The notes under the pieces are model-generated. The model was given only the letters and a program-made list of their open reading frames with translations. It was not told where the DNA came from and did no database searches. Positions 1 to 17,960 of a stretch of 64,000 bases of DNA are shown here, piece by piece. The stretch is taken from IMG/VR virus record IMGVR_UViG_3300042874_000443, positions 64,001 to 128,000 of that record. The stretch is one strand, 5' to 3'. How positions within the stretch are numbered: the stretch's first letter is position 1; each line of letters starts with the position of its first letter. This DNA is from a virus. A program made the translations under genes and the position numbers.

Positions 1-1226
1 GCGCCGGCGATGTCGTCGGCGACGTCATCGCGTCCCACGAGTTTCGAGGGTTCGATGTAGTCGCCGTTGTCGAACACGGCGAGGTAGGGCTTCGCGTTGT
101 AGCCGCGACGGATCGCGTAGTCCGCCTCATTGGGCCGACCTTGTGGATAGACCTTGATGGACCCGCGATGCTTCGGATCGTAGTACGAGTTCTCGACGAG
201 AGGGTTGTGGCCCGGGATCGCTGGACGGCGTCCGTAGCGCGTTCCTTCATCGAACAGGTCGATGGGGTTCGACATCACGAACGCGTGACGCTCTTTGCCG
301 TCGGACGCGTAGAGTGTGTAGCAGCCCGGCTGGTTGGGCTCGGTCCACCGCTCGTATGGCTGCTCTTGCACGGCCATGTTGCGATCGAGACGCTCGTCCT
401 TTGCTGCGAAGCCCTTCTTCCGGACGCCGGCGTATGCCTCTCCAGCCCTGTCGCCGAAGATGCGCTTGAAGTCGGTCGGCGTGTTGTCCGCGTCAGCGAT
501 CCAGAGGGCGCCGCCGTACTGCTGCTTCGCCGCGACTTTCTCGGCACGTAGCGCAAGCGCCGATGCAAGCGCCTTCACGCCGTACGTCGCCGCCGCTTGC
601 TTCATCAGGCGCGGATTCTTCTCGAGCAGCTTGGTGTACGCGACCTTCAGCTTGTTCGGTGCGGCCGCGAGGAGCGACGGCAGCATCGGTGCGTGGTCCT
701 CCGCCACCTTTTCGAGCGCCTGCGTGTTGATCACGCGTGCGACATCGAAGAGCGCCTTCGACACCCACGCGGCGTACGAGAAACGTCCGGTGATCGGCGG
801 CACGACGACGTTGCGGATGTCGACGTCGGTGTAGAGCGTCTCGGGGGTCTTGACGCCGGTCCCGAGCGACGAGAGTGCGTTCTTGTCGATCTCGTCGAGC
901 CACCCCTTGTTCAAGGGCAGGAAGACGTTCATCGCCTTGTGAAAGAACACCTCGAGCGGCTTGATGGCGTTGTCGACCATCACGACCGGGATGTAGATCG
1001 GCTGTCCGTGGTGCAGCACCACGAACGCACCGACGCCCGATCCCTTGTCGATGTCGACGTCGAGCACCTTGAACGTGACGACGTCCTGCAGCACGTCGGG
1101 CATGCGCGACGACAACAGGTTGTACGCCATTTCGGACATACCTTGCTCGAACAAGGCGGATTCTTGATCCGGGCCCGCACCCATTCCAGCTTGAAGCTGT
1201 TGCGTTCGGGGAGACATTGCCGGCAT
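1..1226 (-). CDS. Large hypothetical (putative head/virion) protein, N-terminal >408 aa, runs off left edge
   Basis: Not in ORF track. Manual translation from ATG at 1226 (overlapping the HNH stop) gives MPAMSPRTQQLQAGMG...TFKVLDVD...GVGAFVVLHHGQPIYIPVVMVDNAIKPLEVFF..., open to position 1. Contains EKVAE, LKVAY, MKQAAA, EKVAA. Confidence 0.8.
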   Translation of the reverse strand, partial: MPAMSPRTQQLQAGMGAGPDQESALFEQGMSEMAYNLLSSRMPDVLQDVVTFKVLDVDIDKGSGVGAFVVLHHGQPIYIPVVMVDNAIKPLEVFFHKAMNVFLPLNKGWLDEIDKNALSSLGTGVKTPETLYTDVDIRNVVVPPITGRFSYAAWVSKALFDVARVINTQALEKVAEDHAPMLPSLLAAAPNKLKVAYTKLLEKNPRLMKQAAATYGVKALASALALRAEKVAAKQQYGGALWIADADNTPTDFKRIFGDRAGEAYAGVRKKGFAAKDERLDRNMAVQEQPYERWTEPNQPGCYTLYASDGKERHAFVMSNPIDLFDEGTRYGRRPAIPGHNPLVENSYYDPKHRGSIKVYPQGRPNEADYAIRRGYNAKPYLAVFDNGDYIEPSKLVGRDDVADDIAG

Positions 1227-1705
1227 CAGTTGTTCCTCTCGTGCGGGCAGGTCCCGTACAGCCCCTTGGCCATGTTGCAGTTGTGGCAGAGCGTCCGAAA
1301 CCCAGACGGAAAACCGTTCGTGATCAACCAAGCATACAGGTTGGCGTTGTTGATCGTTTTGCGGTGTTGATTGCCCCCGCCATCAATGTGGTCGATGCAC
1401 AGAAACAAGAACTCGCGTTCGCCACAACACGCACAGCGGTCACCGTAGTGCTCGATCACTTGGCGGCGACGGTGTTCGTTCCGAATTTTGGCCGTGTCTG
1501 CGTACATGCGGAGGCATGAATCACAGAAACGTTTGGCTGTCGTCTTCTCTCCACCACATGCGCAGCAACGTCCGCTGTCCTCCAACACCTTTGCATGGTG
1601 ATTGTTTCGACAGCGTTCCGTACAGAAAACCTGCGTGCTTCGTCGTGGCGAGAACGACGTCTCGCAGCTTCGACACACGTTGGTGGTTGTTGCGGACGTT
1701 GACAT
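1226..1705 (-). CDS. Free-standing HNH endonuclease (Cys-rich)
   Basis: CACCGE...LCIDHIDGGG...TLCHNCNMAK pattern with N-terminal CxxC motifs; visibly more AT-rich than neighbours. Confidence 0.8.
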   Translation of the reverse strand: MSTSATTTNVCRSCETSFSPRRSTQVFCTERCRNNHHAKVLEDSGRCCACGGEKTTAKRFCDSCLRMYADTAKIRNEHRRRQVIEHYGDRCACCGEREFLFLCIDHIDGGGNQHRKTINNANLYAWLITNGFPSGFRTLCHNCNMAKGLYGTCPHERNN

Positions 1706-1731
1706 AAGGGCTAAGCGACCTGTTTAGGTCC

Positions 1732-1902
1732 TCACGAAGAACTTGGGAACGATACGACTTTCGGAAGGTTTGCGTCGGGAAGGCCGCCCAGCTGCTTGGT
1801 CTTCTGTGCCTTGAGCGAGCCGAGCGTCGGGGTGATGATCTCGCCGAGCTTCGCTACGACGGCTCGAAGGCCCGCTTCGCGGATGTGACGCGGAAGGCTC
1901 AC
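1732..1902 (-). CDS. Small hypothetical protein (56 aa)
   Basis: GTG overlaps upstream TGA (GTGA); MSLPRHIREAGLRAVVAKLGEII...; weak match to the leader motif of neighbouring genes; below the track cutoff. Confidence 0.5.
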   Translation of the reverse strand: MSLPRHIREAGLRAVVAKLGEIITPTLGSLKAQKTKQLGGLPDANLPKVVSFPSSS

Positions 1903-3233
1903 GCGCGCTGCGCGGCGTCGATGCGACGGAACATGTCGCGGAGCGACGCCTCCTTCTTGTCGTCGTCCTTCTTCTCGTTCTTGTCGCCGCCGCCGTCCTT
2001 CTTGGCGTCGATCTTGTCTTGGATGAACGACGGGAGTCCGCCCTTGCTCTCGCCCTTGTCGTCGTCCTTCTTCTCGTCCTTCTTGTCGTCCTCCTTCTTC
2101 ATGAACGGCGGAAGGTCATCGGCCTGTTTGGTGCCCTGGTTGCCCGAGCGCCCGTCGTACGCACCGGGGCGCGAGTGCGTCGCCTCCGGGTTGTGCTCGT
2201 TGTAGTTGCTGCGCGAGCCGGGCGGCAGGTTCGCCGGCGCTGCTGCCGTGCGATCCGCTGCTTCCTTCTGCAGGCCGCGGAGGTAGTACGCCTTCTCCTC
2301 GGTGGTCAGGCCCATGCACGCGCGCACGGCCGCGATCTTGGCGTTCTCGTCGAGAGAGCCCGGCAGATACTCGTGCACCTCGGCCGCGACCTTCTTGAAG
2401 AGAGCGATGTACGGGTCTTCGGAAGCGGCCTTGCCCGAGTGCTCGGTGAGCGAGTTCGAACCGCCCGGCGTCTCGGCCGGCTTGTTCGGCTGCGGGGTCT
2501 CGCGACCGATCACGGCCGGACCCGTCACCTGCTTCATCATCTCGCCCAGGGCGCCCTGGTGCGGAAGAACGGCGTAGCCGGGCGGACGCTGCGAAGCGTC
2601 CATCTTCGCTTCGGCCGACGACATCTCCTTGTTGCCCTTGTCGCCGCCGAGGATGGTCGAACCCTCGGCCGACTTGCGGAAGAGGTCCGAGAGCGACGCG
2701 GTACGCGAGTGCTCCTGCACCGAGTTGTCCTTGGAGTCGGTCTCCTTCGGTTTGTTCGGCTGCTCTTCTTCCTTGCCGACCGCGCCCGGACGCGTGTCGA
2801 CATCGGTCTTGCCGAGGCTGTTCTCGGCGTAGCCCGGCGGACGCTGCGACGCGTCCATCTTGGTCTCACCCTGTGGCGATTCGCCTTCGGTGTTCCCCTT
2901 GTCGCCACCCTCGATGGTCGAGCCCTCGGCAGCCTTCGTCATGAGCTGCGTCGCGTTGTAGTCCGCGACCTTCATGACGTCGTCCCACGTCGCGAGCTTG
3001 TTCCACCCGGCAGCCTTGAAGCCCGGCTGCTTCTTGATCCAGTCCGAAGCGCTGACGAGGTCCGTCGCGATCTTGTGGGTCGTCTCGCGACCGACGCCCT
3101 TCAGCGGGTCGATGTCGACGCGCTCGGCGATGTAGTCCGCGACCTTCGCCGCAGTGGTCTCGTCAGGGAATGCGGCAATGCCGCCGTTGATTAACGCGGT
3201 CTGGATGCCTCGGACGTACGCGTGCTTGAACAT
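1899..3233 (-). CDS. Putative internal head/scaffold-like protein with two ~90-aa repeats (444 aa)
   Basis: Start reassigned to ATG 3233 (GAGGAG RBS); duplicated KxAEGSTIxGGDKGN...KMDASQRPPGYA...QPNKPxET...NSxxEHS block; many K-x-A motifs; charged tail. Confidence 0.7.
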   Translation of the reverse strand: MFKHAYVRGIQTALINGGIAAFPDETTAAKVADYIAERVDIDPLKGVGRETTHKIATDLVSASDWIKKQPGFKAAGWNKLATWDDVMKVADYNATQLMTKAAEGSTIEGGDKGNTEGESPQGETKMDASQRPPGYAENSLGKTDVDTRPGAVGKEEEQPNKPKETDSKDNSVQEHSRTASLSDLFRKSAEGSTILGGDKGNKEMSSAEAKMDASQRPPGYAVLPHQGALGEMMKQVTGPAVIGRETPQPNKPAETPGGSNSLTEHSGKAASEDPYIALFKKVAAEVHEYLPGSLDENAKIAAVRACMGLTTEEKAYYLRGLQKEAADRTAAAPANLPPGSRSNYNEHNPEATHSRPGAYDGRSGNQGTKQADDLPPFMKKEDDKKDEKKDDDKGESKGGLPSFIQDKIDAKKDGGGDKNEKKDDDKKEASLRDMFRRIDAAQRA

Positions 3234-3260
3234 GCAAGTCTCCTCGGGGGGAACGGTGGA

Positions 3261-3268
3261 ATGATAGG
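3261..3268 (-). promoter_or_regulatory. Variant of the CCTATAAT element (CCTATCAT)
   Basis: One mismatch to the motif; intergenic, upstream of RBS and ATG 3233. Confidence 0.4.
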
Positions 3269-3297
3269 ACGGGACGCTCAAATATCCAACGGTTGCA

Positions 3298-3510
3298 CTA
3301 ACCGAGTGCTTGGGCCTTCGAAGCGCCCGTCGCCATTGGTGGTGCGGATGAGGCTGGTGGAGCCATGGTCGATGCGGGCTGTGGTTGTGTTCCCACGGAA
3401 GCCTGCCCACCGAGCATGGGGTTGTAGCCGGCAGCGCCCTGCTGCATGTTGCCGAGCTTGAAGCGTGCGAACGCAGCAGCGCGTCCTCGGTTGTAGGCGT
3501 CGTTGATCAT
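3298..3510 (-). CDS. Small leader-motif protein (70 aa)
   Basis: MINDAYNRGRAAAFARFKLGN then Q/P/A/M-rich tail; ATGA overlap with upstream gene. Confidence 0.65.
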   Translation of the reverse strand: MINDAYNRGRAAAFARFKLGNMQQGAAGYNPMLGGQASVGTQPQPASTMAPPASSAPPMATGASKAQALG

Positions 3511-3965
3511 TGGAAGGGGTCCTGTGGTGGTTGTGGCGGTGGGGCGCTACCGAGTAGATGTCCGGCACCATGCCCGAGGCGGCCGCCGAGCGCAGCACCG
3601 AGAGGCATACCAAGCATGCCGCCCGCCATGCCGCCGTATGCACCGCCCGCGAGACGCCCAAGTGTTCCGAGCGCATGTGACGCGCGCCCTTCGTTCGGGT
3701 CTGGATTGGTTACCGCACGCATCGCCATCGGTACCATGGCGAGCGTTCCTGCACGACCAATCCAGTTACCGAACGTACCGTACTGTGATGGCCAGAACAC
3801 GTTCTTCCAATGCAACGCACCGCCTGGTGAGAATGCCTTGGGTCCTTGTACGAACGCACGACCTGCATCACCGATGAGCGACCGTTTGGCGAAGTCGACT
3901 ATCCCAGCCACCTTGAAGTGTGACAGGGCTGCGACTACGCCTTGTTCATGTGCCTTTGACAACAT
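3507..3965 (-). CDS. Leader-motif protein with glycine zipper (putative membrane-inserting virion protein)
   Basis: MLSKAHEQGVVAALSHFKVAG; C-terminal GxxxG repeats LGRLAGGAYGGMAGGMLGMPLGAALGGRLGHGAG. Confidence 0.7.
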   Translation of the reverse strand: MLSKAHEQGVVAALSHFKVAGIVDFAKRSLIGDAGRAFVQGPKAFSPGGALHWKNVFWPSQYGTFGNWIGRAGTLAMVPMAMRAVTNPDPNEGRASHALGTLGRLAGGAYGGMAGGMLGMPLGAALGGRLGHGAGHLLGSAPPPQPPQDPFQ

Positions 3966-5746
3966 CAGTACTGACCCTCTTCGCCAAGGCCAAATTCAGT
4001 GCCGGCAACATACGCTGGAACAGGTGACGCTCCATGCAGATTGGACACATCCCCTCGATGGATACCCGCCAGCAATGACTCTTTGAGATAGCGATGTGCG
4101 AGACGCGCCATCCAGTCAGGGTTGAGAAGAGGTGTGCGCGACGCTGGGCGCATCAACGGCGTGGCGCGTGGGCCATGCTCTGCAATCAACACGGACGTCA
4201 CACCGTTCCGGGTCAGTTGGTCCGCCATCGGTTGCGTCACAAGCGTGCCTGCCGTGTGGTGCAGTACATTGTCCGCTAACGTCTCGCCGACCGCGTCCGC
4301 CGTGGGGAGGCGCTTCTTGGAAGATGCGAGCGCAGCATGGAAGCGGTTGTAGTCGACGACGTCGCCCTTCAAGAACGCGTCGTGCGGCCCAGGGTCCACG
4401 ATCTGTACGTGGTTCAAGACCGACTTCGCAAGGGTCTCGAGGTGGCGCTTGTCGACCTCGGAGCCCGAGCGTTTGTAGACGTCAGACAACGCGTCGACGA
4501 GATAGCGACGTCCTTCACCGAGGCCCTTGTGCTGCACGACTTCATCGGGCTTGGGAACGCCATCGGAGAGCAGGTCGCCCGCGTACATCGACTGTCCGAC
4601 GTTCACGATGACCTTGTGTGTGGGTGCCACGTAGTGACTGCCGTCGTTGACGAAGACGTAGTGCCCACCTTGAGGCGCCTTGTCGATCTTGGTGATCGTA
4701 CCGTCTCGGTTCGCAAGGGTTGCCTTGTGTGCGAAGGCCGTCGGAATTTCGAGCAGAGACCGCACACCTTTGATGCCTTCGAGGCGTTTTTCATCGTCGA
4801 CACTGGCCACGCGTCCGCCGTGCTTGGCGTTCAGCGAGAACTGCGTCAAAGGCTCGGACAGCGCTTGCGCTGCACGCACTCCGACGTTCGTTCCGATCGA
4901 GTGCATCGCGCCCGAGGGGGACAAGCCCTGGCAGTGCTGACAAACACCGTGCGCGGCTTCGCACGTCATCGGTGACCGTACGACGACTTCTTTGCCCGTC
5001 TTAGCCAGGGTCGACGCGTACTGCGGCGTGATGAGTTTGTTCGTCTTTGCTTCGTAGCGGTCGATGATGTGCGCGTCCGTCGGAAGCATCGCCAGTCCGT
5101 TGTGCGTGCCGCAGTCGATCTTCGTGACGAGCTGATCCCCCATGTTGTTGACGAGGATCTTGGCGAGGTCGCCTGGTTCGACGACGGAGATGTTCGACAG
5201 CACGGCGTTGACGCGCGCTTCGCCCCCGGCGACCCATGCGTCAGCAGGCTTGAGGCCTTCGGAGAAACTGCGATCGATGAGCCACGGGACGATCTTGCCC
5301 TTGGAGTCGCGCGCGAAGACAGGCGCTCCGACTGTACGCATCAGCTGAGGTGCGTTGCCGCGTCCGCCCGACCGCACCATCTCGCCCATCGTGCCCGGGT
5401 GCTTTTTTGCGAGCGTGAGCATCGAGTCGAAAGCGCCGTTGAGCGCCTTGTCCTTGTCGACGGTGGTCGTCGCACGACGAAACGCTTCGACGTGCGGCTT
5501 CATGGCTGCATCGCGTGCCGCGGTGTGCGGTGCGATGTCGTCGAGCCCGACCGAGATGCCGTCGAGCGTTGCCGTCTCGTCGCCCAGGCGTTTGAGCTTG
5601 GTGACGATGTCGGGGTACTTGTGCGGGTCATCCTTGGCGATGCCGACAAGGGTCTCGTTCAACGATCCTTTGGTGAGCGCGCCACGCCCGCGCCACTTCG
5701 GTGGGAGGATCGAGTCGACGAGATGTTGGCCGAGCGTGGTGGCCAT
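3965..5746 (-). CDS. rpoC: DNA-directed RNA polymerase beta' subunit, C-terminal half (phage-encoded)
   Basis: Colinear with bacterial RpoC C-half: GISVGLDDI, MVRSGGRG, SFSEGL, DCGT, VRSPMTC...GVCQHCQG (Zn), trigger loop AAQALSEPLTQFSLNAKHGG, DKRHLE. Confidence 0.93.
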   Translation of the reverse strand: MATTLGQHLVDSILPPKWRGRGALTKGSLNETLVGIAKDDPHKYPDIVTKLKRLGDETATLDGISVGLDDIAPHTAARDAAMKPHVEAFRRATTTVDKDKALNGAFDSMLTLAKKHPGTMGEMVRSGGRGNAPQLMRTVGAPVFARDSKGKIVPWLIDRSFSEGLKPADAWVAGGEARVNAVLSNISVVEPGDLAKILVNNMGDQLVTKIDCGTHNGLAMLPTDAHIIDRYEAKTNKLITPQYASTLAKTGKEVVVRSPMTCEAAHGVCQHCQGLSPSGAMHSIGTNVGVRAAQALSEPLTQFSLNAKHGGRVASVDDEKRLEGIKGVRSLLEIPTAFAHKATLANRDGTITKIDKAPQGGHYVFVNDGSHYVAPTHKVIVNVGQSMYAGDLLSDGVPKPDEVVQHKGLGEGRRYLVDALSDVYKRSGSEVDKRHLETLAKSVLNHVQIVDPGPHDAFLKGDVVDYNRFHAALASSKKRLPTADAVGETLADNVLHHTAGTLVTQPMADQLTRNGVTSVLIAEHGPRATPLMRPASRTPLLNPDWMARLAHRYLKESLLAGIHRGDVSNLHGASPVPAYVAGTEFGLGEEGQY

Positions 5747-5747
5747 A

Positions 5748-6131
5748 TCACATCATGGGGTAGCCGCCGCCCGCGTTCATCATGGCGTGCTGGCGTGCCT
5801 GCTCTTCGCGCTTGGCCTGGTTGTGTCGGTGCAACATGTAGAGGCCGCCGCCGGCGAGTAGCGACGGTGCGAGCGTCTTGAGATTGCCGAGGGCGCCCGC
5901 ACGCGCGGCCGCACCAGCAGCAGCGTCTGGCGCTCCGCCGAGGCCTTGGTGCAGGTTGCCGAGTAGGCTCTTGCCCGCCTCGAGCTGACCCGACCCGAAC
6001 GCCTTGGCCCGATCCATGAGGCCAGCACCGGCCGCTGGCGCTGCTCCCATACCTGGAAGTGGGAGCTGGTTGGCGATCTTGAAACGCGCGAGCGCGTCGA
6101 AGTGTCCTTGGGCAACGTAGCGGTCGAGCAT
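5748..6131 (-). CDS. Small leader-motif protein with hydrophobic Gly-rich segment (127 aa)
   Basis: Start reassigned to ATG 6131 (TGATG overlap); MLDRYVAQGHFDALARFKIAN; LAPSLLAGGGLYML. Confidence 0.7.
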   Translation of the reverse strand: MLDRYVAQGHFDALARFKIANQLPLPGMGAAPAAGAGLMDRAKAFGSGQLEAGKSLLGNLHQGLGGAPDAAAGAAARAGALGNLKTLAPSLLAGGGLYMLHRHNQAKREEQARQHAMMNAGGGYPMM

Positions 6132-6607
6132 CAGACGCCTCCGAAACTGGTGTTCTGTCCCATATCGCTGAGCCGGTTGGCGGCATCGCCGCCGGCAAGG
6201 TTCGACGGCGCACCCCACGACGTGTTGCGGTCGAGAGGGTCACGCGCTGCGAGCTGATCGGCGGGCGCCATCGGAGCGTCGATCTCCTTGAGCAGATCGG
6301 CGAGGCTGTCCGCTGTTTCTTCGTTCGCGCGTTTGGCGTTTCGATCTGCTTCAGCCTTATGGGCTGCGTCGAAGCCGTGGAATGTGCGGCTCGGAATCTT
6401 CAGGCGCAGTTCCTCGGCGGCTTGCTTGAAACCGAATCGCTCGAGAGCATCGACGATGCCGAGTAGGTGCGACTTCTTCACGTGCTGCGGCAACTTCTTA
6501 CCCTTGGGAGTGGCGTCCTCCCACTCCTTGACGGTCTTGGAGCTGATCTCGCCGCGGTCTGCCATGGCGTAGAACTTCCCCCGTTGCGCTTGGGACTTGA
6601 AGGGCAC
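6131..6607 (-). CDS. Hypothetical phage protein with internal copy of the leader motif
   Basis: N-terminus MPFKSQAQRGKFYAM; internal SHLLGIVDALERFGFKQAA; preceded by CCTATAAT. Confidence 0.7.
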   Translation of the reverse strand: MPFKSQAQRGKFYAMADRGEISSKTVKEWEDATPKGKKLPQHVKKSHLLGIVDALERFGFKQAAEELRLKIPSRTFHGFDAAHKAEADRNAKRANEETADSLADLLKEIDAPMAPADQLAARDPLDRNTSWGAPSNLAGGDAANRLSDMGQNTSFGGV

Positions 6608-6612
6608 GCTCT

Positions 6613-6620
6613 ATTATAGG
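6613..6620 (-). promoter_or_regulatory. CCTATAAT promoter-like element
   Basis: Exact motif 5 nt before GTG 6607; overlaps the RNAP stop codon. Confidence 0.55.
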
Positions 6621-9600
6621 CGCGAGCCTTTGATTTCGATGGGATCGTTGAGCGCGATCTCGCCCCGGTGATAGGCAGCCATCGCTTCTTCCTGGGACTC
6701 GAAGTGCTTTGTTTTCTTGCTGGCGGGGGCCTGCGTCGCTCGATGGAGCCCGAGCAGGCTCTCCATCTCGGGCACGATGTTCAAGACGCCCGGACGCTTG
6801 TCCGCAAAGATCATGTGGGACAGCGTCATTTTCTTCACGTCTTCGATGCCGGCCGGCGTGACGGGCGCGTGGATCTGCATTGCGTCACCGTCGTAGTCCG
6901 CGTTGGTCCCCTTCTCCGCGAAGGGGTTGAGCTTGAGGGTCTTGCCTTCCACGATCTTCGGGTACGCACCGATGATGTTGAAGCGATGTAGCGACGGCGC
7001 CCGATTCACCATCACCGGCCGCTCCCGGGATTCGTTGACCAGCTCCTCGCGTGCGATGGGCTTGCGGTCGTCGACCATCTTCTGCGCGTCGGTTGCGGTG
7101 TACCCGCGACGCACGAGGCGTCCGATCACGAACTTACCGTACATCCCCCAGAGCATTCCTTCGGGCACGCCGATCTCATCCATCGACAACGTCGGATCTG
7201 GCGCGATCGTCGCGCGCCCGCTGACGTCCTGTTGGCGCTTCATCAAACGCGATTGGAAGAAGCCGCTGCCCGGACGTGTGCCGGTGATCGCCGCGAGGTA
7301 TCCCTTCGCCCCGCGCTTCTCGGCACCAGGGCTGACAGGGTCACCGACGCCGTAGAGCGCGCTCACCGCGTCGTAGAGATGTTGGCGTGGCGCCGGATGT
7401 TCGGCGGAGGGCAAGCTCTTCGTCGCGTCCTTGAGCTGGTTGTTGGCGAGGAACGCATCCTTATAGAGAAGGTTCGCGTCGCTGACCTGCAGGCGCCCAT
7501 CCTTGAGCGGCAAGATGGGACGGATGATCGGCGGCGTGACGGGAACCTTCGTGATGACGTAGGCGTCCGCTGGTTTGAGGTTCTTCTCCTTGAGCGCCTC
7601 GAGATACTTGATCTGCTTCACTACGCCGTCGAGCGTGGGGCCGCGGGCCTTCTTCGACTGCGTGTGCAGATCCTTCAGCTTGTCGTCGACGTTGATCTCG
7701 CCGAGCGCCGACTTGAACCACGCACCGCCCTTACCGACGTGTGTCGTGAACTCCTTCTGTGTGAGGCCAAGGAGACGGCGGACAGGTTCTTCGAACACTG
7801 GGTTGACGATCGGTTCGTGAAGGTCGACGTGTGTCCACTTCGTGCCTGACATACCGCCCGTCATGCCGGGGTCGAAGAGCCCTCCGACTTCGGGACGCAG
7901 GTCCTTTGCACGGATCAGACGGCTGGGGTCCTTGAGCGCGCCTGACGACATCGACTTCACGTCGGCGTCCGTGAGGGGGCCGAGCGAGAGACGCGAGCCC
8001 GCCTTCGACACTTTCACACCAGCGCCGGTGAGCATGCTCTGCAGCTTCTCGTAGGCGAACGGAGTTTTGGGTGCAGGCGTCGGCAACCCGAGCTGCACCG
8101 CACGCCAGAACTCGTCGTTGCGTTGGCTCTTGATGGACGCAGCTTCACGCAGCACGTTGCGCGCGTTGTGCGCGACGAGCCCATCGAATTCCATCTTGCC
8201 GATGCCCTTGGCGCCCTCATCACCACCGCGCGCGGGCTGCTGGTTGTAGTCGTACCGCTCGGCGCCGTGCGCCGCCCAGTTCGAGTCCGTCGTCTTGAAG
8301 AGCTTGAGGATGTAGCTCTTGCCGACGACGACGTTGGGGATCTTCTTGCCGGTGATCGGGTCGAGCACGGTCTCTTTGTCGGAGAGGCCGTGTTCGTCGA
8401 GCAGCTTCTTTGCGAAGGCGACGTTGTCGCGGCCCGGCGTGTATTGCGGAACGACGATAGGCTTCCCGATCTTCTCTGCGACTTTGCCCAGCGCCGTCTC
8501 GACGATCTGTGCGGGGTTGATGCGCGAGACGACACCCGCGGACGTGAACAACAGATCGATCGGACGTCCTTGCGCGTCATGCACCATCTGGTGGTCGGGG
8601 ACGATCTTCGCGATGACGCCCTTGTTGCCGAATCGGTTGGAGAGCTTGTCTCCGATCTGCAGTGCTTCTTGTGTTCGAACCGACGCAGCTGCGTGCTTCG
8701 CTGTTTTCGCGATGTCGATGACAGTGCCCGGTCGGTCGTGGTCCCACGTCGCGATGACTTCTTCGTAGGGTTTGATGAGCGCCTTGGACAGCTTGCCGAG
8801 AAGCGCGGCGTCGCCCGTCGCCTTGTTTTCTCGAACGCCCACGATGATCGGGTCGCCCGGATGAAGCGTCACACCGTGCTTGACCACGCCGTCGTCGTCG
8901 AGCTTGTCGTACTGCTCCTTCGTGTACCGACTGCCGAAGTACGATCGATGACGCTCACGTCCGAGCTGCGTGTCGCCCTCACGTGACACCGCGTGCTGGT
9001 ACATGTGCTCGCTCGTCAGCTTGTCCGCCGCGCCTTGCGAAACGACGATACCGTCGTTGGTGTTGAGGCCGCGGTACGGCATGTACGCCACGCTCAAGTT
9101 CGTGCCGAGCGCGAGCGCCCCGCCCTTGGTGAAGTTGCTCTCGGCGAGCGGCTGGTTCTTCTTGACGGTATCGCCCACCTTCACGGTCAGCGTGTTGTGC
9201 AGCGCTGTCTTGGCTGCTAGCGGGAAGTCCTGATCGTAGTGGTGGCGCGAGTTTTCGGCTCCCGTCTTTGCGTGGTGCCCGACGTGGATGTAGTCGCCGT
9301 CGATCTTCGTGATGACGCCGTCGTGACGCGCAGTCGGCACGAGCAACTGCACCATGTCCTGTTCGACGGACGAACCGGGGTTCCATGATGCGACCTGAAC
9401 CAGTGGCGCTTCGCGATGGGTGAGCGGTAGCGCCTGTCCTTGATGCTTGCTCGCCATCAGCACACGGTTGCCCTGGATGCCGTAGACGAAGGGCAACAGG
9501 TTTGACGTCGGTCCGTACTGGTCAGCAACGTGTTCGATCTGATGTGTCACCTTGTCCGCAGACACGCGCGACACCACCCCGTGCGCCATCGCATCGACCA

Positions 9601-10975
9601 TCTTGCCGGGCTTCACGACTTCGCCGGGGAAGGCGATGACCGACGCAGCCATGTCGCCCGCCTTGAGGTAGGTCGGACGTCCCGTCTTCACGTCGATGAC
9701 GGGGGCGTAGAGGTTGCCCTTGTCGTCACGGCGCGCGCCGATCGCTGCGCGTAGGTCGACACCGATCTTGAAGCTCTCAGGACTGCGCGCGGGGTCGAGG
9801 ATGCCCAGGTGCGTCGGGTGAACATCGCGAGCCTCGAGCGGGATGGCGCGGTCGGATGCGATGGCTCCTTCGCCGAGCATTGTGACGCGCGACGCTTCGT
9901 CGAGCAGTTCCATTGGATTGATCTGCATCGGGACCGCGCTGAGGGAACTGCCTGTGAGCAGTCCATGCATCGAGCGCGTGAAGGGGCCCGCAGGCAACGC
10001 CTTCTTGATGTCGCCGTGGCTGGCGTCCAGTTTCCAGCCCAGCTTGGCTTTCATCGCGCGCGCCTCGAGCGCAACACGTTCCTTGACGAAGTCGTCCACC
10101 GAGTGGAACGTCTTGAACGCGAGCGAATCTCGGTCGTCGACGTCCGCAGCTGTCTTGTGTACGTCGAGCAGCTTCTTGGACGCAGCAAGGATGGCAGCGG
10201 GCGACGCCTTCTCGTAGGGGTACCCGAGCGTGTGGTGCGTGACCGCGGGGTCCATCGAGGTGTTGTCGAAGTACTCACGCAACACACGCGACTTCTCGTC
10301 CGTCGTTGTCGCGGTTTGCTTGGCTGGATGCACCAGCGTTTCGTACAGCTTGTCGACGTGCTTGTCGGGGTTCTTCCACGCGTCTCGATTCATCGACGCG
10401 ATCTCGGGGCCCCAGTTCGTTGCGATGTCTTGGTGCGGGATACCGAGCGCACGCAAGACAGGGTGCAGTGGGATCTTCGATGTTGTGTGCGACGGTTGCA
10501 TGTAAAGGAGCCCCTTCTCGGGGTCCATCGACATGCGAAAGTTCGCGCCCTTCGCTAGGTTGAACGTTGCCTCCAGTTCTTCATTGCCGCGCCGACGGAT
10601 GTACGCACCCGGTTTGGTACGAATCTGGTTGGAGACTGAGTACTCCGTCCCATCGAGAATGAACGTGTGTCGAGGCGTGAAGTACGGCAACTGAAGAAGC
10701 GTGAAGTCTTTGGCGTGGTTGACGGTGCTGCCGCTTGCGTCCTTGACCGTCAGGTCTCCACGTACCCGCTCCGCGAGCGTCTTGCCCTCGAGCACCGCGT
10801 GTTTCTGTTCACGCGACGAGAACTCTTTGGGTTCGACACGGACGTTCGTCAGCTCGAGGGTGTGCTTGCCCGCCTTGAGCGGGAACGCTTGCTCGAGGCC
10901 TTCGACGACCTTCTTGCGGATCATCTCGCGACGCGTGGCCGCGTCTTCGAGAACGGGTCGTAGATTCGGCAGCAT
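6614..10975 (-). CDS. rpoBC: Fused RNA polymerase beta + beta' N-terminal half (catalytic subunit)
   Basis: Beta motifs RDVHPTH, GDKLSNRFGNKGVI, SRINPAQ, QQPARGG...GKMEFDGL; then beta' motifs GGLFD, VPVTPPIIRP, DVSGRATI, NRAPSLHR and catalytic NADYDGD (6884-6904). Confidence 0.95.
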   Translation of the reverse strand: MLPNLRPVLEDAATRREMIRKKVVEGLEQAFPLKAGKHTLELTNVRVEPKEFSSREQKHAVLEGKTLAERVRGDLTVKDASGSTVNHAKDFTLLQLPYFTPRHTFILDGTEYSVSNQIRTKPGAYIRRRGNEELEATFNLAKGANFRMSMDPEKGLLYMQPSHTTSKIPLHPVLRALGIPHQDIATNWGPEIASMNRDAWKNPDKHVDKLYETLVHPAKQTATTTDEKSRVLREYFDNTSMDPAVTHHTLGYPYEKASPAAILAASKKLLDVHKTAADVDDRDSLAFKTFHSVDDFVKERVALEARAMKAKLGWKLDASHGDIKKALPAGPFTRSMHGLLTGSSLSAVPMQINPMELLDEASRVTMLGEGAIASDRAIPLEARDVHPTHLGILDPARSPESFKIGVDLRAAIGARRDDKGNLYAPVIDVKTGRPTYLKAGDMAASVIAFPGEVVKPGKMVDAMAHGVVSRVSADKVTHQIEHVADQYGPTSNLLPFVYGIQGNRVLMASKHQGQALPLTHREAPLVQVASWNPGSSVEQDMVQLLVPTARHDGVITKIDGDYIHVGHHAKTGAENSRHHYDQDFPLAAKTALHNTLTVKVGDTVKKNQPLAESNFTKGGALALGTNLSVAYMPYRGLNTNDGIVVSQGAADKLTSEHMYQHAVSREGDTQLGRERHRSYFGSRYTKEQYDKLDDDGVVKHGVTLHPGDPIIVGVRENKATGDAALLGKLSKALIKPYEEVIATWDHDRPGTVIDIAKTAKHAAASVRTQEALQIGDKLSNRFGNKGVIAKIVPDHQMVHDAQGRPIDLLFTSAGVVSRINPAQIVETALGKVAEKIGKPIVVPQYTPGRDNVAFAKKLLDEHGLSDKETVLDPITGKKIPNVVVGKSYILKLFKTTDSNWAAHGAERYDYNQQPARGGDEGAKGIGKMEFDGLVAHNARNVLREAASIKSQRNDEFWRAVQLGLPTPAPKTPFAYEKLQSMLTGAGVKVSKAGSRLSLGPLTDADVKSMSSGALKDPSRLIRAKDLRPEVGGLFDPGMTGGMSGTKWTHVDLHEPIVNPVFEEPVRRLLGLTQKEFTTHVGKGGAWFKSALGEINVDDKLKDLHTQSKKARGPTLDGVVKQIKYLEALKEKNLKPADAYVITKVPVTPPIIRPILPLKDGRLQVSDANLLYKDAFLANNQLKDATKSLPSAEHPAPRQHLYDAVSALYGVGDPVSPGAEKRGAKGYLAAITGTRPGSGFFQSRLMKRQQDVSGRATIAPDPTLSMDEIGVPEGMLWGMYGKFVIGRLVRRGYTATDAQKMVDDRKPIAREELVNESRERPVMVNRAPSLHRFNIIGAYPKIVEGKTLKLNPFAEKGTNADYDGDAMQIHAPVTPAGIEDVKKMTLSHMIFADKRPGVLNIVPEMESLLGLHRATQAPASKKTKHFESQEEAMAAYHRGEIALNDPIEIKGSRL

Positions 10976-10992
10976 TTTGGTACAAGACTCCG

Positions 10993-11370
10993 TTAGGGCA
11001 GCCGTCGCGGTCGTTCGACAGGTTCAGCATCGCCCGCGTCTTGGTCGTTCGCCGGCGCCGGACGTGTTCGCGGCGTCAGGTAGACCAACGCCACCATGAA
11101 GTCGCCTTCCTTGGTGAACGTGCGGTCTTCGTAGCGCATTACAGCTTCGCCGCGCAGCACTTGGTTCATGACGTCTTCGTAGGCCTCGCGGTCTGCGGGA
11201 AGCGCGTAGACCTCGGAGTGCGCTTCGAAGTCCAGGTCAGGCCCGCCGCGGTTGACGCGCGGCTCGAACGCCGTCCTCCCTGGGCCGTTGCTGAACAGAC
11301 TGCCGATGTCGTTGCTGACCTTCTGCGCGCGTTCGACGACGGCCGCGAAGTCTTCTGATTCTTGGGGCAT
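10993..11370 (-). CDS. Hypothetical protein between portal and RNAP
   Basis: AGGA RBS; coherent 125-aa ORF in operon context. Confidence 0.7.
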   Translation of the reverse strand: MPQESEDFAAVVERAQKVSNDIGSLFSNGPGRTAFEPRVNRGGPDLDFEAHSEVYALPADREAYEDVMNQVLRGEAVMRYEDRTFTKEGDFMVALVYLTPRTRPAPANDQDAGDAEPVERPRRLP

Positions 11371-11381
11371 GGTTTATCCTA

Positions 11382-13184
11382 TCAACCTACCGCCGGAGGT
11401 CCAGCGGGGGGCGCACCGCCCGTACCACCAGACGGGTCGCCGCCCTGGCGCGACATCGCGATGGCCTGCTGATTCATCTGCGTGGTCTGGTCGTGCAGAC
11501 GTTCCTTCACGACGGCGTACATCACCATGTCTTCGGTCTGCAACGCGTGCATCTGCGACTGGCGCGTGCCGGGGTCGAGGCCCATCAGCTGTTGAACAAG
11601 CTGGTCTGCCTGCGCGATGACAGCCTGCTGGTCGTACGACAACCCTTGCTGCCCCATCTGCGCTTGCGCGCGTGCGCGAGCGCCCAGATCGTTCTGGCGT
11701 TTCTGCATCTCGATCTGCAGCTCTTGCGCGACGCGCGCGTCGTCGAGCGCTTCCTGCATGCGCCACTTCCGCTCGTCGGAGGGGTCGATGTTGAACGTCT
11801 CGCCCATCGTTCGCTTGGAGATCCAGGGTCCTGTCGTTGGGTCTGCGCCGTTGAGCTGGAGGAGCAGCGCCTTCTGTTGCACGTCGTCGATGAAGCGGAA
11901 GGGCGCGAGCGTGACCACGACGGTGCCGCGTCCGAGTTGTTTGGCGGCCTTGTCCGTGACCCACTGCAGGAGGTCGTTGAGGTCACCCGTCTGATGGACG
12001 AGCTGGTTCTCGAGCACACGGAGCTGGATGCCTGAGCCCATCGCCGAGAAGCCGCCGTAGATGAACTCCTTGGGTAGCCCCATCGCCGCGATGATGTTGT
12101 CCTCGGCCGCCTGGACTTCGCCGAGCGTCATGAGCGCGCGGGCCTGACCGCCGAGGTGCGTGACCTCCGCAGGGACTGGCGACCACATGATGTGCAGCGG
12201 GTCGCGGCGCCACTTCTTGACGCTGCTCTTCATCTCGTCTGACCACTTCGCCAGCGAGATCGTCGTCATCGGGTCGGCGTTCGCCGTCGACTGCTTCGGC
12301 GAGATGATGCGCAGCGGGACGATGTAGTCGAGCGCGATCGCTTCGTTCGCCTTGCGGAGCACCGCTGCGTAGAAGAACAGCTTGATCGTCGACGCCAGCG
12401 GCGGAAAGCCCCACTGGGCCTCGATGCCCGCAGGTGCGTCCATGCGCATGTGGAAGACCTGACCCTCGGCGAACTTGAAGATCTTGTCTTCGCGGATCGC
12501 TTCCAAGAACTCCATCGGCATCGTGTCGATGAGGTGCTTGTTCCCCTTGGCGCAGCGTTCCTTAATCTCCTTGGGGATCGTGTAGTAGTACTCGCTGTGC
12601 CCGGTGATGGGGTTGTAGTCGATGTCCATCAACTTCGGGTCCCAGCGGATCACCGAGATGCGGTCCTTGCGCGTGATCTTGCGGTCGACGATGTTCTTCG
12701 CACCGACGTCGACGCGCGTCTTGCAGCCACTGCACTCGTAGTTGAAGGCCAGCTTCTTGAGTTTGAACTTGTAGGTGATCTGCTGGATGTTCGTCAGCGT
12801 CTGGCAACGCGGGCACTTCAGGAAGCGCACGAACGGCGAGTACATCGAGAAGAACGCGTTGCCGTAGACGAACTTGTCAACGGCCGCACGGATCAAGATG
12901 CGCTTGGTCTTGAGCGTCTTGTTGTGGAGGTCCTCGTAGTATTCCTTGAGCGCTTCGTTCTGCGTCTCGTAGACGATGTCCGTGACGGGGTACGTGCAGA
13001 ACTTCTGCAGCGCCGCGTAGATCTGCGAGCTGTTGAAGTAGAGGTATTCGCAGAGGCGGAAGAGGTCCTTCAGCTTCCGGGGCGCGAACGCCGTGAGGAA
13101 GTCGAAGAGCGGGCTGCCGTGCGAAGACACGTTGTGCGTCGCGAGATCAGCGACCCCGGGGTCGAACATTCCATCAGCGGCCAT
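11382..13184 (-). CDS. Portal protein (with Zn-ribbon insertion)
   Basis: FVYGNAF, WGFPPL, IIAAMGLPKEFIYGG are portal-like; CPRC...CSGC insertion; Q/M-rich tail; GAGG RBS. Confidence 0.75.
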   Translation of the reverse strand: MAADGMFDPGVADLATHNVSSHGSPLFDFLTAFAPRKLKDLFRLCEYLYFNSSQIYAALQKFCTYPVTDIVYETQNEALKEYYEDLHNKTLKTKRILIRAAVDKFVYGNAFFSMYSPFVRFLKCPRCQTLTNIQQITYKFKLKKLAFNYECSGCKTRVDVGAKNIVDRKITRKDRISVIRWDPKLMDIDYNPITGHSEYYYTIPKEIKERCAKGNKHLIDTMPMEFLEAIREDKIFKFAEGQVFHMRMDAPAGIEAQWGFPPLASTIKLFFYAAVLRKANEAIALDYIVPLRIISPKQSTANADPMTTISLAKWSDEMKSSVKKWRRDPLHIMWSPVPAEVTHLGGQARALMTLGEVQAAEDNIIAAMGLPKEFIYGGFSAMGSGIQLRVLENQLVHQTGDLNDLLQWVTDKAAKQLGRGTVVVTLAPFRFIDDVQQKALLLQLNGADPTTGPWISKRTMGETFNIDPSDERKWRMQEALDDARVAQELQIEMQKRQNDLGARARAQAQMGQQGLSYDQQAVIAQADQLVQQLMGLDPGTRQSQMHALQTEDMVMYAVVKERLHDQTTQMNQQAIAMSRQGGDPSGGTGGAPPAGPPAVG

Positions 13185-13236
13185 GGTTTACCTCGCCAAC
13201 ATGTAACATCGTAACGTGATAGAAAGGCCAACACGT

Positions 13237-15222
13237 ATGGGCAAAGCCCTGATGGATGTCCGTGTTGGGCGTGCAGGAAACGGGACCCCCGTGTTCCTGG
13301 TTCCTGGACAGAACCCGACGTTCGGACGCGTCTTCGGCGCGGTGTGGGACACGACACGCGCGCTGTGGATGTACCCCGCGTTCTTCCCCGCGGCCGACAA
13401 GGTGCTCGCAGACCTGCAGACCGTCGCCAGCGACGTCAACGTCGTCATCTCGGACGTCGCTAAACGGCACATCGATTCGCTTGCAGACGTTCGTCGTCGT
13501 GCCGAAGCGAAGGACCTGCCTGCTGATTTTGGGTTCGTCACAGAGCCGTACCAGCATCAGATCGAAGGGCTGTGCCACGTGTTCTACAACATGCGGGCGG
13601 CACTGTTCTACGACCCCGGTCTCGGCAAGTCGAAGATCGCGATCGATCTCCTTCGGCTGCTCCGTCACACCGGCGTCAGGTCCCAAGCGCTGGTGCTCGG
13701 GCCCCGCATCACCGTGCGGAACTGGGGACGTGAGATCGATCGTCACGCAGGCCGCCAACTGTCGTGGATCACCTTGACAGGCACCCCGAAACAGAAACGG
13801 GAAGCCCTCGAGCGCGCGGCCGCGGAGGGTACCGACATGGTTTTGTCGACGTACGACACTGCGAGAAGTTTAGTGGATTTGCTCGTAGAACGGCTGCCTT
13901 ACAGCATTCTCGTCTGCGACGAGAGCCACAACGTGAAGACGTGGCAGTCCGAACGCACCAAAGCGACCTGGGAGATCGCCCAGAAGGCGGTCCGGCGCAT
14001 CCTCATGACAGGGTCACCAACCGAGGGCAATCCGCTCCATCTGTACGGTCCCTACAAGATCTTGGGCGACTGCTTCATGCCCGAGAACTACTTCAAGTTC
14101 AAGAAGACCTTCGTCATCACGCGAGGCCCCAACTCTCCGATCGTAGTCGGTTACAAGAACCTCGACGTCATCAATGCCCGTACGACGTTCTTGTCGCTAC
14201 GACGTACCAAAGAGGAGTGTCTTGACCTCCCCGAGCGCACCTTCGTAGACGTGGACTACGAGCTGTCGCCAGAGCAGGGCACGTCCTACAACCAGATCGT
14301 TACGACGATGGGCATCGACCCCGCGACGCTCAACATGCTCGTCACTGCGATGCGTACTGCCGGCGGTAACGCCCTGCCGATGCCGGCGACACTTCCTCCA
14401 GAGATGGAGATGCCGCACCGTGCAGCGGCGCTCACCAAGCTCTTGCAGATCACGTCAGGATTCCTCGTCAAGAACGAGAAGGACCTCCAGTTCTGTGACA
14501 CCGCTGAACAAGGACAGCAGTGCCGTCATTTGCAGCGATGCATCGAGAACAAGATCCTGCCGCACACGCCTCGCTGTCATGTTGACCAGACGCCATGGCC
14601 TACGTCGCTTACACGGTTCGACGAGAACCCCAAGCTCGACGCGATCATGGAGCTGCTCACGAACATTCTCGAAGTTCCGAAGCACAAGGTCATCATCTGG
14701 TGCGCGTTCCATCCTGAGATGGACTTGATCACGGAGCGCCTGACGACCGCCGAGGTCAAACACGTGCGCGTCGACGGAAACGTCCGTGACCCGATGGTAC
14801 TGGTCGATCAGTTCAATGACGACCCGGATACACGCGTCTACGTCGGACAGGTGACGACAGGTGTCGGGATTACGTTGAATGCTGCAGCGTACATGATCTA
14901 TAGCTCGTTGCCGTATTCGCTCAATTCGTACAACCAGTGTTTGGATAGAAACTATCGCATCGGACAAGGCGAGAAGGTTACGGTGTACCGCATGCTCGGT
15001 CGGTCAACCTTGGAGGCGGCCGTCGCCTACCTGCTTGACCACAAGGTGGATGTCGACTCACTGCTCACGAACAAGATCGAATGCGCGATGTGTCTAAATA
15101 GCATCCGTTGTTTGGCAGAAGGAATCGAGCCATTCGAGACGGGATGTATCTACCCCAAGCGCGTTGATCGCCCCATCGTCAAGGCGTATGCGCTCCCGAT
15201 GTTCCCTGGAGGTTCGCGATGA
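13237..15222 (+). CDS. SNF2-family helicase/ATPase
   Basis: DPGLGKS (I), CDESH (II), MTGSP (III), GVGITL (V), QCLDRNYRIGQ (VI). Confidence 0.92.
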   Translation: MGKALMDVRVGRAGNGTPVFLVPGQNPTFGRVFGAVWDTTRALWMYPAFFPAADKVLADLQTVASDVNVVISDVAKRHIDSLADVRRRAEAKDLPADFGFVTEPYQHQIEGLCHVFYNMRAALFYDPGLGKSKIAIDLLRLLRHTGVRSQALVLGPRITVRNWGREIDRHAGRQLSWITLTGTPKQKREALERAAAEGTDMVLSTYDTARSLVDLLVERLPYSILVCDESHNVKTWQSERTKATWEIAQKAVRRILMTGSPTEGNPLHLYGPYKILGDCFMPENYFKFKKTFVITRGPNSPIVVGYKNLDVINARTTFLSLRRTKEECLDLPERTFVDVDYELSPEQGTSYNQIVTTMGIDPATLNMLVTAMRTAGGNALPMPATLPPEMEMPHRAAALTKLLQITSGFLVKNEKDLQFCDTAEQGQQCRHLQRCIENKILPHTPRCHVDQTPWPTSLTRFDENPKLDAIMELLTNILEVPKHKVIIWCAFHPEMDLITERLTTAEVKHVRVDGNVRDPMVLVDQFNDDPDTRVYVGQVTTGVGITLNAAAYMIYSSLPYSLNSYNQCLDRNYRIGQGEKVTVYRMLGRSTLEAAVAYLLDHKVDVDSLLTNKIECAMCLNSIRCLAEGIEPFETGCIYPKRVDRPIVKAYALPMFPGGSR

Positions 15223-15599
15223 AGATCGTCGTTACGTATGAGGCCGCTGACATCACACGCCTGATTCGCCAAGACATGGCGAAGCAGGGCATCACGACCA
15301 CCGACGGTGACGTCAAGTACGTCAAAGGCAAAGCCGTGGTTTCCGTCGAAGTGTCGAGCGACGATGTCCCGGCGCCGAGCCCTGTTCCGGCGCCCGCGGA
15401 AGAACACGTACGACCTGAAGTGCCCAAGACGGCGCCGCCCAAACTGGAAGCCCTCTCTGGAGGGAACGAACCGTTCGACATGGATGCGATCCATCGCGCC
15501 TCCGCGAAGGTCGCCGCCACCAACCCGGGGAAGTTCCCGGTGCCTGAACGTCAGCTCATGGAAGGGGAGTCGTTCGACTTCCCAGGAGACAAGCGATGA
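15219..15599 (+). CDS. Hypothetical protein
   Basis: ATGA overlaps at both ends. Confidence 0.7.
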   Translation: MKIVVTYEAADITRLIRQDMAKQGITTTDGDVKYVKGKAVVSVEVSSDDVPAPSPVPAPAEEHVRPEVPKTAPPKLEALSGGNEPFDMDAIHRASAKVAATNPGKFPVPERQLMEGESFDFPGDKR

Positions 15600-16510: not shown

Positions 16511-16546
16511 TGGACGCGTGAATCGCGTGCGTGCTACGAGAGGTTT

Positions 16547-16903: not shown

Positions 16904-16912
16904 AGTAGCGAC

Positions 16913-17310: not shown

Positions 17311-17314
17311 CTCC

Positions 17315-17952: not shown

Positions 17953-17960
17953 GAGACACC

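Follow-up and report, generated by a model that had tools for sequence, protein, structure and literature searches.

Bacteriophage N4 starts early transcription with an RNA polymerase (RNAP) carried in its virion, gp50. The crAss-like phage phi14:2 follows the same principle with its virion-carried polymerase gp66 (bioRxiv 10.1101/2020.03.07.982082). Both enzymes are single giant chains (T7-like and divergent two-barrel, respectively), unrelated or barely alignable to cellular beta and beta' subunits, and neither uses sigma70. The RNAPs of phiKZ and AR9 consist of beta/beta' homologues without alpha or omega, and one of the sets is carried in the virion and injected to transcribe early genes (PMC7824862; PMC7598289). 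Each of these phages encodes a virion set and a paralogous non-virion set, in which beta and beta' are each split, and no sigma gene (PMC7824862). According to a review of jumbo phages, those that encode an RNAP have no sigma factor, and those that encode a sigma factor have no RNAP and hijack the host core (PMC7824862). The window analyzed here is a stretch of 64,000 nucleotides, bases 64001-128000 of the 157,408-bp IMG/VR phage record IMGVR_UViG_3300042874_000443. Its first 13,184 positions hold, on the minus strand, genes for a portal protein, a two-chain RNAP of bacterial type and small glycine-rich proteins. Unlike phiKZ and AR9, this phage has one RNAP set, a whole beta subunit fused to the N-terminal half of beta' (beta'N), and two sigma70-family genes. 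Judged from its sequence, it belongs to the lineage of Salmonella phage Arash and Vibrio phage D69 (about 160-195 kb), which breaks the rule of the review by combining one bacterial-type RNAP with two sigma70-family factors. The reading we favor, at a probability of roughly 0.6, is that the core enzyme and one sigma factor, of the type of Arash gp10, would be synthesized along with the head proteins and packed into the prohead, to leave it with the DNA and initiate transcription, and that an RpoS/RpoD-like sigma would later serve promoters of the form CCTATMATT. Positions below are those of the window unless called genome positions, which count along the whole record.

The larger RNAP gene (6614-10975, minus strand) encodes a chain of 1453 residues in which RNAP beta continues, without an intervening stop codon, into the catalytic N-terminal half of beta' (beta/beta'N). 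It was matched by Pfam Rpb2_2/3/6 and Rpb1_1/2 and by NCBIfam rpoB, rpoC and rpoC1-gamma. Rpb2_6 (3e-46, 158.6 bits), Rpb2_3 (29.3 bits) and Rpb1_2 (1e-21, 78.5 bits) were all above cut-off, and Rpb1_1 (38.5 bits) fell just under its cut-off of 39.7. The catalytic loop NADYDGD is found at residues 1358-1364, with N, D, D, G and D invariant in alignment A3. The chain also matches the Helicobacter-type beta/beta' fusion models PRK09603 and PRK14844, and is 35% identical to Arash gp206 across 99% of its length. The second gene (3965-5746, minus strand) encodes the 593-residue C-terminal half of beta' (beta'C), which was matched by Pfam Rpb1_5 (3e-19, 69.8 bits, above cut-off) and by NCBIfam rpoC and rpoC2, and which is 30-32% identical to Arash gp216 and D69_0264. 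The point at which beta' is split corresponds to the end of cyanobacterial RpoC1 and the start of RpoC2. Note that the Rpb1_1 profile is matched solely from its position 167 onward, and that fusion residues ~990-1100 (7700-8000, minus strand) contain no Cys where bacterial beta' has its N-terminal Zn-ribbon; the zinc-binding domain of beta' seems to have been deleted.

The initial annotation had proposed a search of the rest of the genome for a second RNAP set and an alpha subunit, and neither was found in this contig or in five full-length relatives (Arash, whose genome is complete, the chromosome assembly of D69, and three IMG/VR records rated 100% by CheckV). This contig and the five relatives each have a single match to RNAP beta (PF00562). 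RNAP alpha (PF01000) gave none in the same six sequences, and was detected in 14/14 control genomes. The two-chain enzyme is predicted to work like a bacterial core, yet because PF01000 is absent it would not be the canonical alpha2-beta-beta'-omega core. In several relatives, gaps of 0.4-1 kb break up the match of the beta/beta'N gene in tblastn (3325-4307 in L010/L011/L012/L017, 5107-5957 in L014, 5995-6428 in L018 and 3122-4017 in L029), and a homing endonuclease is annotated beneath the same match in Vibrio phages D181 and D148. These gaps are probably introns, inteins or homing-endonuclease insertions.

The contig (61% G+C, ~84% complete by CheckV) was divided into genes with crude calls based on third-position G+C content (GC3), which gave 185 calls. 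By these calls a 43-kb minus-strand virion block extends from genome position ~33969 to 77184 (window position 13184), and positions 1-13184 are its promoter-proximal 13 kb. In the order of transcription the genes are the portal, p125, beta/beta'N, p158, p127, beta'C, p152, p65, p444, p56, an HNH endonuclease and a 986-aa protein. The block further holds a gp5-like baseplate hub, the tail sheath, a candidate head-maturation protease and a candidate capsid protein (311 aa, 39% identical to the D69 gene at the capsid-gene position). A prohead protease had been another object of the proposed search. The candidate was matched by phrog_18299 (E 2e-7); however, it had no match in Pfam or NCBIfam, its profile found nothing in the PDB, and its AlphaFold model (3-row alignment) was unusable for a fold search, with a predicted local distance difference test (pLDDT) score of 35. 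Adjacent genes are tightly packed. The p158/p127 and beta'C/p152 junctions have one base in common (TGATG), p152 and p65 overlap as ATGA, and the other genes are separated by 1-26 nt, with a longer spacing of 67 nt only ahead of p444. From this arrangement the RNAP genes are predicted to be translationally coupled to small glycine-rich proteins with a shared N-terminal motif, described below.

The portal gene (11382-13184, minus strand, 600 aa) is the first of the block and is divergent from an SNF2 helicase gene. It was assigned from its 29-31% identity to Arash gp204, annotated as “portal protein”, and to D69_0259, and from a fold comparison. Its AlphaFold model (pLDDT 59) gave 31 listed Foldseek matches in the PDB at E<=0.001 (of 39), all of them portal or portal-vertex/neck structures, with probabilities of 0.94-1.00 and template-modelling (TM) scores of only 0.2-0.4. 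No match was found in Pfam, PHROG or NCBIfam, and an 11-row profile searched against PDB sequences was likewise empty. The initial annotation had placed the RNAP genes directly downstream of the portal in one minus-strand block. The block and the strand were right, but one 125-aa gene lies between, p125 (10993-11370, minus strand; 52-82% identity in close relatives). Its positional counterparts, Arash gp205 and D69_0260, have a similar C-terminal pattern, and gp205 does not appear among the proteins detected in Arash virions. p125 could be an assembly factor for RNAP or portal. The separation of the RNAP genes from plus-strand replication genes was borne out: the plus strand from 13216 to 28803 encodes the SNF2 helicase, two PD-(D/E)XK nucleases, a DnaG-type primase and a family A DNA polymerase (PolA).

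The arrangement was then compared across relatives, as had also been proposed. Megablast of positions 1-20000 against the phage collection gave no match. With tblastn, Arash and the Vibrio phages D69, D148 and D181 were the only ones to show full-length counterparts of the fusion (99% coverage, 35% identity). When IMG/VR was scanned for beta'C, 22 loci were obtained, with identities of 46-85%. In every IMG/VR locus that was long enough the order was SNF2 (divergent), then portal-p125-fusion-p158-p127-beta'C-p152-p65-p444-p56-p986-p223-p329. Portal identity across the 22 loci ranged from 92% down to 46%, and in distant loci other small open reading frames (ORFs) replace the small genes. Arash and D69 keep the backbone of portal, small gene, beta/beta'N, beta'C and a gp218-like gene at 29-35% identity, with a divergent helicase beside the portal and a sigma factor nearby. 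In Arash (OQ632216) these genes are gp204 (portal), gp205, gp206 (beta/beta'N) and gp216 (beta'C), its sigma factors are gp10 and gp196, and an SNF2 helicase is likewise divergent from the portal. The linkage of RNAP to head genes thus holds over wide divergence, in the 22 IMG/VR loci as well as in Arash and D69.

Five genes around beta'C carry a common motif, [AS][HY]xxGxxxALxxF-K-h-[AG], which is N-terminal in all but p158, as the initial annotation had noticed for the small Gly-rich genes interleaved with the RNAP genes. The motif was searched for with a hidden Markov model (leader HMM) of 20 residues built from [AS][HY]xxGxxxALxxF. On the minus strand, matches were p127 (5748-6131; 1.6e-5), Gly/Ala-rich with 17% Gly, whose ATG shares a base with the p158 stop; p152 (3507-3965; 3e-5), with 18% Gly and a C-terminal glycine-zipper-like run of GxxxG repeats; p65 (3301-3510, ~70 aa; 3.5e-5 after inclusion), Gly/Ala/Pro-rich with 13% Gly; and p444 (1899-3233), of low complexity and acidic/Lys-rich. 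In p158 (6131-6607, minus strand, GTG start; independent E-value 6e-5; 54-69% identity in relatives) the motif is internal, around residue 44; this protein also had a weak match to PHROG 25121, “virion structural protein” (E 0.003). p444 is the most widely conserved leader protein, with homologues in all full-length relatives at 30-80% identity and a conserved N-terminus. In the contig as a whole, leader HMM matches were confined to the minus strand of genome 35-70 kb. Nine ORFs are headed by the motif, 1-9 residues from the start (p152, p65, p127, p444 and those at genome 51913, 51726, 51325, 52222 and 35771), and beyond it their proteins are unrelated and of low complexity.

If the favored reading holds, the leader would be a likely head-loading tag of a new sequence type, and it is a putative packaging or processing signal. 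A competing explanation, independent of whether the polymerase is packaged, is that the motif is a retained structural or docking helix (for portal, scaffold or inner capsid wall), or else an element that directs Gly-zipper proteins of an ejection or lysis type to the membrane, these proteins being encoded near RNAP by coincidence. It would suit this explanation that p444 homologues carry the motif within a longer conserved N-terminal region, that p158 and two larger proteins have it in their interior, and that the protease assignment is weak. At E<=1 the leader HMM had no match in Arash or D69, and among relatives at <=50% identity it had a single one, in L018. The distribution of the motif points the other way. 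It heads nine otherwise unrelated ORFs, is usually followed by K-h-[AG] (7/10 copies), and is found in the virion block in 10/10 copies, a block that comprises 45/185 crude gene calls (hypergeometric P = 3e-7). Close relatives retain it, and by eye diverged copies could be recognized on ORFs flanking beta'C and on the p444 homologue in the distant loci L018, L024, L029 and L031. Arash and D69 also have small Gly-rich ORFs between their RNAP genes (gp212, gp213 and D69_0262), and gp213 is present in Arash virions. We consider the helix or membrane element a serious competitor, though an unlikely one. The N-terminus of beta/beta'N (..GLEQAFPLKAG) was considered as a further leader copy and rejected, as it probably aligns with the conserved N-terminal motif of beta in E. 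coli. As a separate observation, [ED]-K-x-A-[ST] motifs recur in the head-module proteins Arash gp220, D69_0268 and D69_0269 (L001 27100-28023, L002 21809-23289).

Evidence on packaging comes from a relative, through liquid chromatography-mass spectrometry of Arash virions (PMC10585845). The most detected protein was gp206, with 128 unique peptides and 3516 spectra. gp216 had 40 unique peptides and 1210 spectra, and the sigma factor gp10 had 24 and 467, in the range of the portal (32 and 877) and the capsid protein (30 and 1333); the Gly-rich gp213 had 7 and 143 (PMC10585845). A protein named “structural protein”, gp218, had 36 unique peptides, most replication enzymes in the table had 2 each, and the second sigma, gp196, was not in the table (PMC10585845).

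These values were weighed against the possibility that the enzyme is not a virion component, but an intracellular middle or late RNAP that shares an operon with the head genes, with host RNAP transcribing the early genes and the Arash signal reflecting carry-over. The Arash table does list 116 proteins, many of them metabolic, and carry-over was raised by its authors. In addition, the RNAP chains have no leader motif, the promoters of the virion genes resemble the bacterial -10 TATAAT, and an enzyme present as one set must act inside the cell at some stage anyway. Against carry-over, the two RNAP chains and gp10 were detected with 24-128 unique peptides, like portal, capsid and tail proteins and in contrast to the 2 of most replication enzymes, and the absence of gp196 argues that carry-over was not indiscriminate. 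The position of the RNAP genes, from the portal to the protease and capsid genes, is kept down to 29% portal identity despite exchanged flanking genes, and the gp10-type sigma is encoded among virion-protein genes. A purely intracellular role is therefore regarded as improbable, although it deserves to be kept in mind.

The two sigma70-family genes differ in location and in likeness to known factors. The 247-aa gene at 51602-52345 (minus strand), the candidate packaged sigma, lies outside 1-13184 in a second virion-gene block and is divergent. In Pfam it was matched by region 3 alone, at 25.0 bits versus a cut-off of 25.3, whereas its 10-row profile found SigA, RpoS and RpoD chains in the PDB (E 5e-9 to 1e-7), with matches that cover region 2 and, for some chains, extend through region 4. 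It is 33% identical to Arash gp10 (E 2e-33), and its neighbors match Arash gp4, gp6, gp8, gp12, gp13 and gp14 in the same order, all of which are Arash virion proteins. The 309-aa gene at 18886-19815 (minus strand), the candidate late sigma, is RpoS/RpoD-like, stands among replication genes and is a homologue of Arash gp196. It passed the Pfam cut-offs for Sigma70_r2 (36.4 bits, cut-off 24) and Sigma70_r4 (39.6 bits, cut-off 24.1) and that of NCBIfam TIGR02937 for the sigma70 superfamily (79 bits, cut-off 42.9), while the RpoS, RpoH and RpoD equivalog models scored below theirs. The gp10 type is conserved in 5/5 distant relatives and Arash, and the gp196 type in Arash and D69.

Docking of the 247-aa sigma on fusion residues 1040-1453 was modeled from a separate alignment for each of the two chains. 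The ipSAE score was 0.63, versus 0.00 for the best of three controls; the mark applied is reached by 58/80 solved complexes and 2/110 mismatched pairs. Runs agreed in at least 56% of contacts, and partner pLDDT was at least 65. The modeled interface joins fusion residues 1172-1216, at the position of the clamp helices, with sigma residues 32-72 (regions 2.1-2.2), and the clamp-helix region of beta'N is conserved in alignment A3. Contact between sigma region 2 and the beta' clamp helices is typical of bacterial holoenzymes, and such complexes have been solved. Because they have, the model should be considered to show likeness rather than binding: in the model, the phage sigma/beta' pair keeps canonical surfaces.

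The weakest of the alternatives holds that a packaged core works independently of phage sigma, starting alone or with an unrecognized specificity subunit as in phiKZ and AR9, while the phage sigmas redirect host RNAP; it has in its favor that known multisubunit phage RNAPs work without sigma (PMC7598289), that no sigma gene was found in RNAP-encoding group 1 jumbo phages and sigmas redirecting host RNAP are common among phages (PMC7824862), and that the beta' Zn-ribbon region seems to be missing, so that the enzyme differs from cellular cores, but it is made quite implausible by the co-occurrence of gp10 with RNAP in Arash virions at similar spectral density, by the conservation of both sigmas wherever the lineage was examined, and by the conserved clamp-helix region with its modeled region 2 interface (likeness only).

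Promoter-like elements bear on how the proposed sigma factors would divide their work. CCTATMATT, a -10-like sequence, has 10 exact copies in the contig versus a mean of 0.27 in 100 Markov simulations, and 9/10 are on the minus strand. By direct reading of ORFs, 10/10 copies lie 14-93 nt before a same-strand ORF; a script using the crude gene calls put two copies inside called genes, 437 and 2966 nt from the next call. Among the genes behind the element are that of the tail sheath, the one that follows the protease candidate, and some in the second virion block. The copies have no -35 element in common. Within 1-13184 the exact element is found only ahead of p444, as CCTATCATT at 3260-3268 (minus strand), 26 nt before the ATG and conserved in L010 and L013-L016. 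A copy with one mismatch, CCTATAATA at 6612-6620 (minus strand), overlaps the beta/beta'N stop and ends 4 nt before the p158 GTG, so that it is upstream of beta'C. This site is conserved in L010, L013, L015 and L016, and because in L015 it is a perfect CCTATAATT outside coding sequence, the comparison argues that the 6612-6620 element is functional.

For the portal and beta/beta'N, only the weaker variant CTTTCTATCAC was found, 2-3 positions off the class and conserved among close relatives. Thus beta'C and the tagged genes would stand behind the virion-gene element, and the portal and the fusion behind the variant. The initial annotation had both RNAP genes share a promoter-like element with tail and head genes, which agrees with p444 (exact) and p158/beta'C (one mismatch) but not with the portal and beta/beta'N.

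At three places, all on the minus strand, CCTATAATT or CCTATCATT is followed by ATG after exactly 5 nt (window 34204-34218, genome 51913-51927 and genome 9460-9474). Together with the 4-nt distance to GTG at p158, this suggests leaderless or near-leaderless mRNAs, with leaderless starts predicted 4-5 nt after CCTATAAT(T/A). A generic sigma70 consensus scan of 1-14000 was uninformative (3 sites vs 1.9 expected), and terminator-like sites in the same range were below expectation. GATAAAC, which is enriched, was rejected as a promoter element and belongs instead to the ribosome-binding context RGGATAAAC(C)ATG. The full start context reads GTTG-N3-4-RGGATAAAC(C) directly before the start codon, and is found at the portal and p125 among others (window 13192, 11378, 42388, 31234 and 62810; genome 157389, 132658 and 2660). 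GATAAACA has 6 occurrences, all outside the crude gene calls.

In the favored reading, the RNAP genes would be part of a head-morphogenesis cassette, between the portal and the protease, scaffold and capsid genes. The core (beta/beta'N and beta'C, without alpha or omega) and the sigma at 51602-52345 would be produced alongside virion proteins. Both would be enclosed in the prohead with the leader-bearing proteins and would exit the head with the DNA, after which the injected holoenzyme would begin phage transcription. The second sigma (18886-19815) would then direct the -10-type CCTATMATT promoters of virion genes, including that of the p158-p127-beta'C-p152-p65 unit. Timing, packaging in this phage, ejection and which sigma acts when are inferred. 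A more specific version can be put forward only tentatively, namely that the virion delivers a complete minimal sigma-holoenzyme (the two-chain core with the virion sigma) as the only RNAP of the phage, that sigma switching on this one enzyme governs the passage from early to late transcription, and that the co-packaged, leader-tagged Gly-zipper proteins help polymerase and DNA to cross the envelope. The initial annotation had already proposed that the RNAP is packaged and uses a phage sigma, and synteny, Arash virion mass spectrometry, the single RNAP set and sigma docking all speak, indirectly, for this; the likeliest packaged sigma, however, is that at 51602-52345, not that at 18886-19815.

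Several points weigh against this reading. The sole proteome is from a relative at 29-35% identity, and its 116 proteins (43% of genes) include ribonucleotide reductases, ligases and primase, for which the authors allow abundance-driven carry-over (PMC10585845). With the contig only ~84% complete by CheckV, the gene inventory should be read accordingly. The RNAP chains themselves are without the leader motif that might target them to the head. On the side of transcription, the promoter region of the portal and beta/beta'N is unlike the CCTATMATT class, no convincing early-promoter class emerged from genome-wide k-mers, AT-rich islands or k-mer enrichment in non-coding gaps, and a TATAAT-type -10 could be read equally well by the host holoenzyme. 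The docking result may reflect model memory of solved holoenzymes.

The remaining genes at the distal end of 1-13184 have less bearing on the polymerase. The N-terminal part of the 986-aa virion protein, a homologue of Arash gp218 and D69_0266, occupies 1-1226 (minus strand), and its gene continues past the window start to genome 62266. An HNH homing endonuclease (1226-1705, minus strand; PHROG 1271, E 9e-9) sits between p56 and this gp218-like gene, and its stop codon overlaps the ATG of the following gene by a single base. Because only 1/22 relatives (L014) has it, it is best explained as a mobile insertion outside the RNAP system. p56 itself (1732-1902, minus strand) is a small conserved gene with 63-82% identity in close relatives.

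Elsewhere in the window, the large subunit of ribonucleotide reductase (39123-42377, plus strand, 1084 aa) has a LAGLIDADG_3 domain between its ATP-cone and barrel domain, probably an intein. The family A DNA polymerase (25807-28803, plus strand) has an N-terminal domain of the uracil-DNA-glycosylase superfamily. A long plus-strand ORF (32555-34228) with GC1 above GC3 (0.79 vs 0.69) lies opposite minus-strand 32561-34204 and is probably a shadow of two minus-strand genes, 33215-34204 and 32561-33205, which start 5 nt after a CCTATAATT element.

The closest described systems are Arash and, beside it, Vibrio phages D69, D148 and D181. In Arash, too, small Gly-rich genes lie between the RNAP genes. 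Arash differs in having opposite-strand genes between its two RNAP genes, in that the leader motif of this phage is undetectable there (identity is only 29-35%), and in a virion-associated SNF2 ATPase, gp217, after beta'C, of which no orthologue is found at that position here. gp217 (L001 23148-24566) is abundant in the virion table, with 38 unique peptides, and may be a RapA-like RNAP partner. The Arash paper reports the proteome and names early transcription as one possibility; the architecture, synteny, leader and sigma logic are not described in it (PMC10585845). The multimeric-RNAP-encoding Caudovirales (mReC, PMC7481178) are likewise uncultured tailed phages from IMG/VR with alignable beta/beta' and NADxDGD. 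Their description makes no mention of beta-beta' gene fusion, split, sigma factors or virions (PMC7481178), and none of six contig numbers searched was found in its supplements.

Among cellular enzymes, the split of beta' resembles that of rpoC1-rpoC2 in cyanobacteria and plastids, as beta'N ends at the gamma (RpoC1) end and beta'C aligns with RpoC2, and the fused chain resembles the rpoBC fusion of Helicobacter and Wolbachia. Here split and fusion are combined in one phage enzyme, which is much shorter than the cellular subunits and seems to have no beta' Zn-ribbon. In T4, a capsid-targeting sequence on the internal proteins IPI-III and Alt is removed by the prohead protease gp21. It is likewise a short common N-terminal peptide on unrelated small head-module proteins. 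The motif found here is ~20 residues long, has a different sequence and ends in K-h-[AG] rather than L/I-x-E. We know of no model phage in which the combination of an only RNAP encoded among head genes, tagged Gly-rich proteins and a packaged sigma has been characterized.

The findings also matter for annotation, since these genes are present in at least 22 IMG/VR contigs and in four cultured phages, where most are labeled hypothetical. If the favored reading is true, the lineage would offer structural and evolutionary studies a minimal RNAP of two chains that lacks alpha and responds to sigma. It would also provide an example of a virion-packaged sigma factor and, with Arash on a laboratory Salmonella strain, a cultured model for each step. 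Delivery of a sigma-holoenzyme would then be a third route to host-independent phage transcription, beside the single chains of N4 and crAss-like phages and the sigma-less enzymes of phiKZ and AR9.

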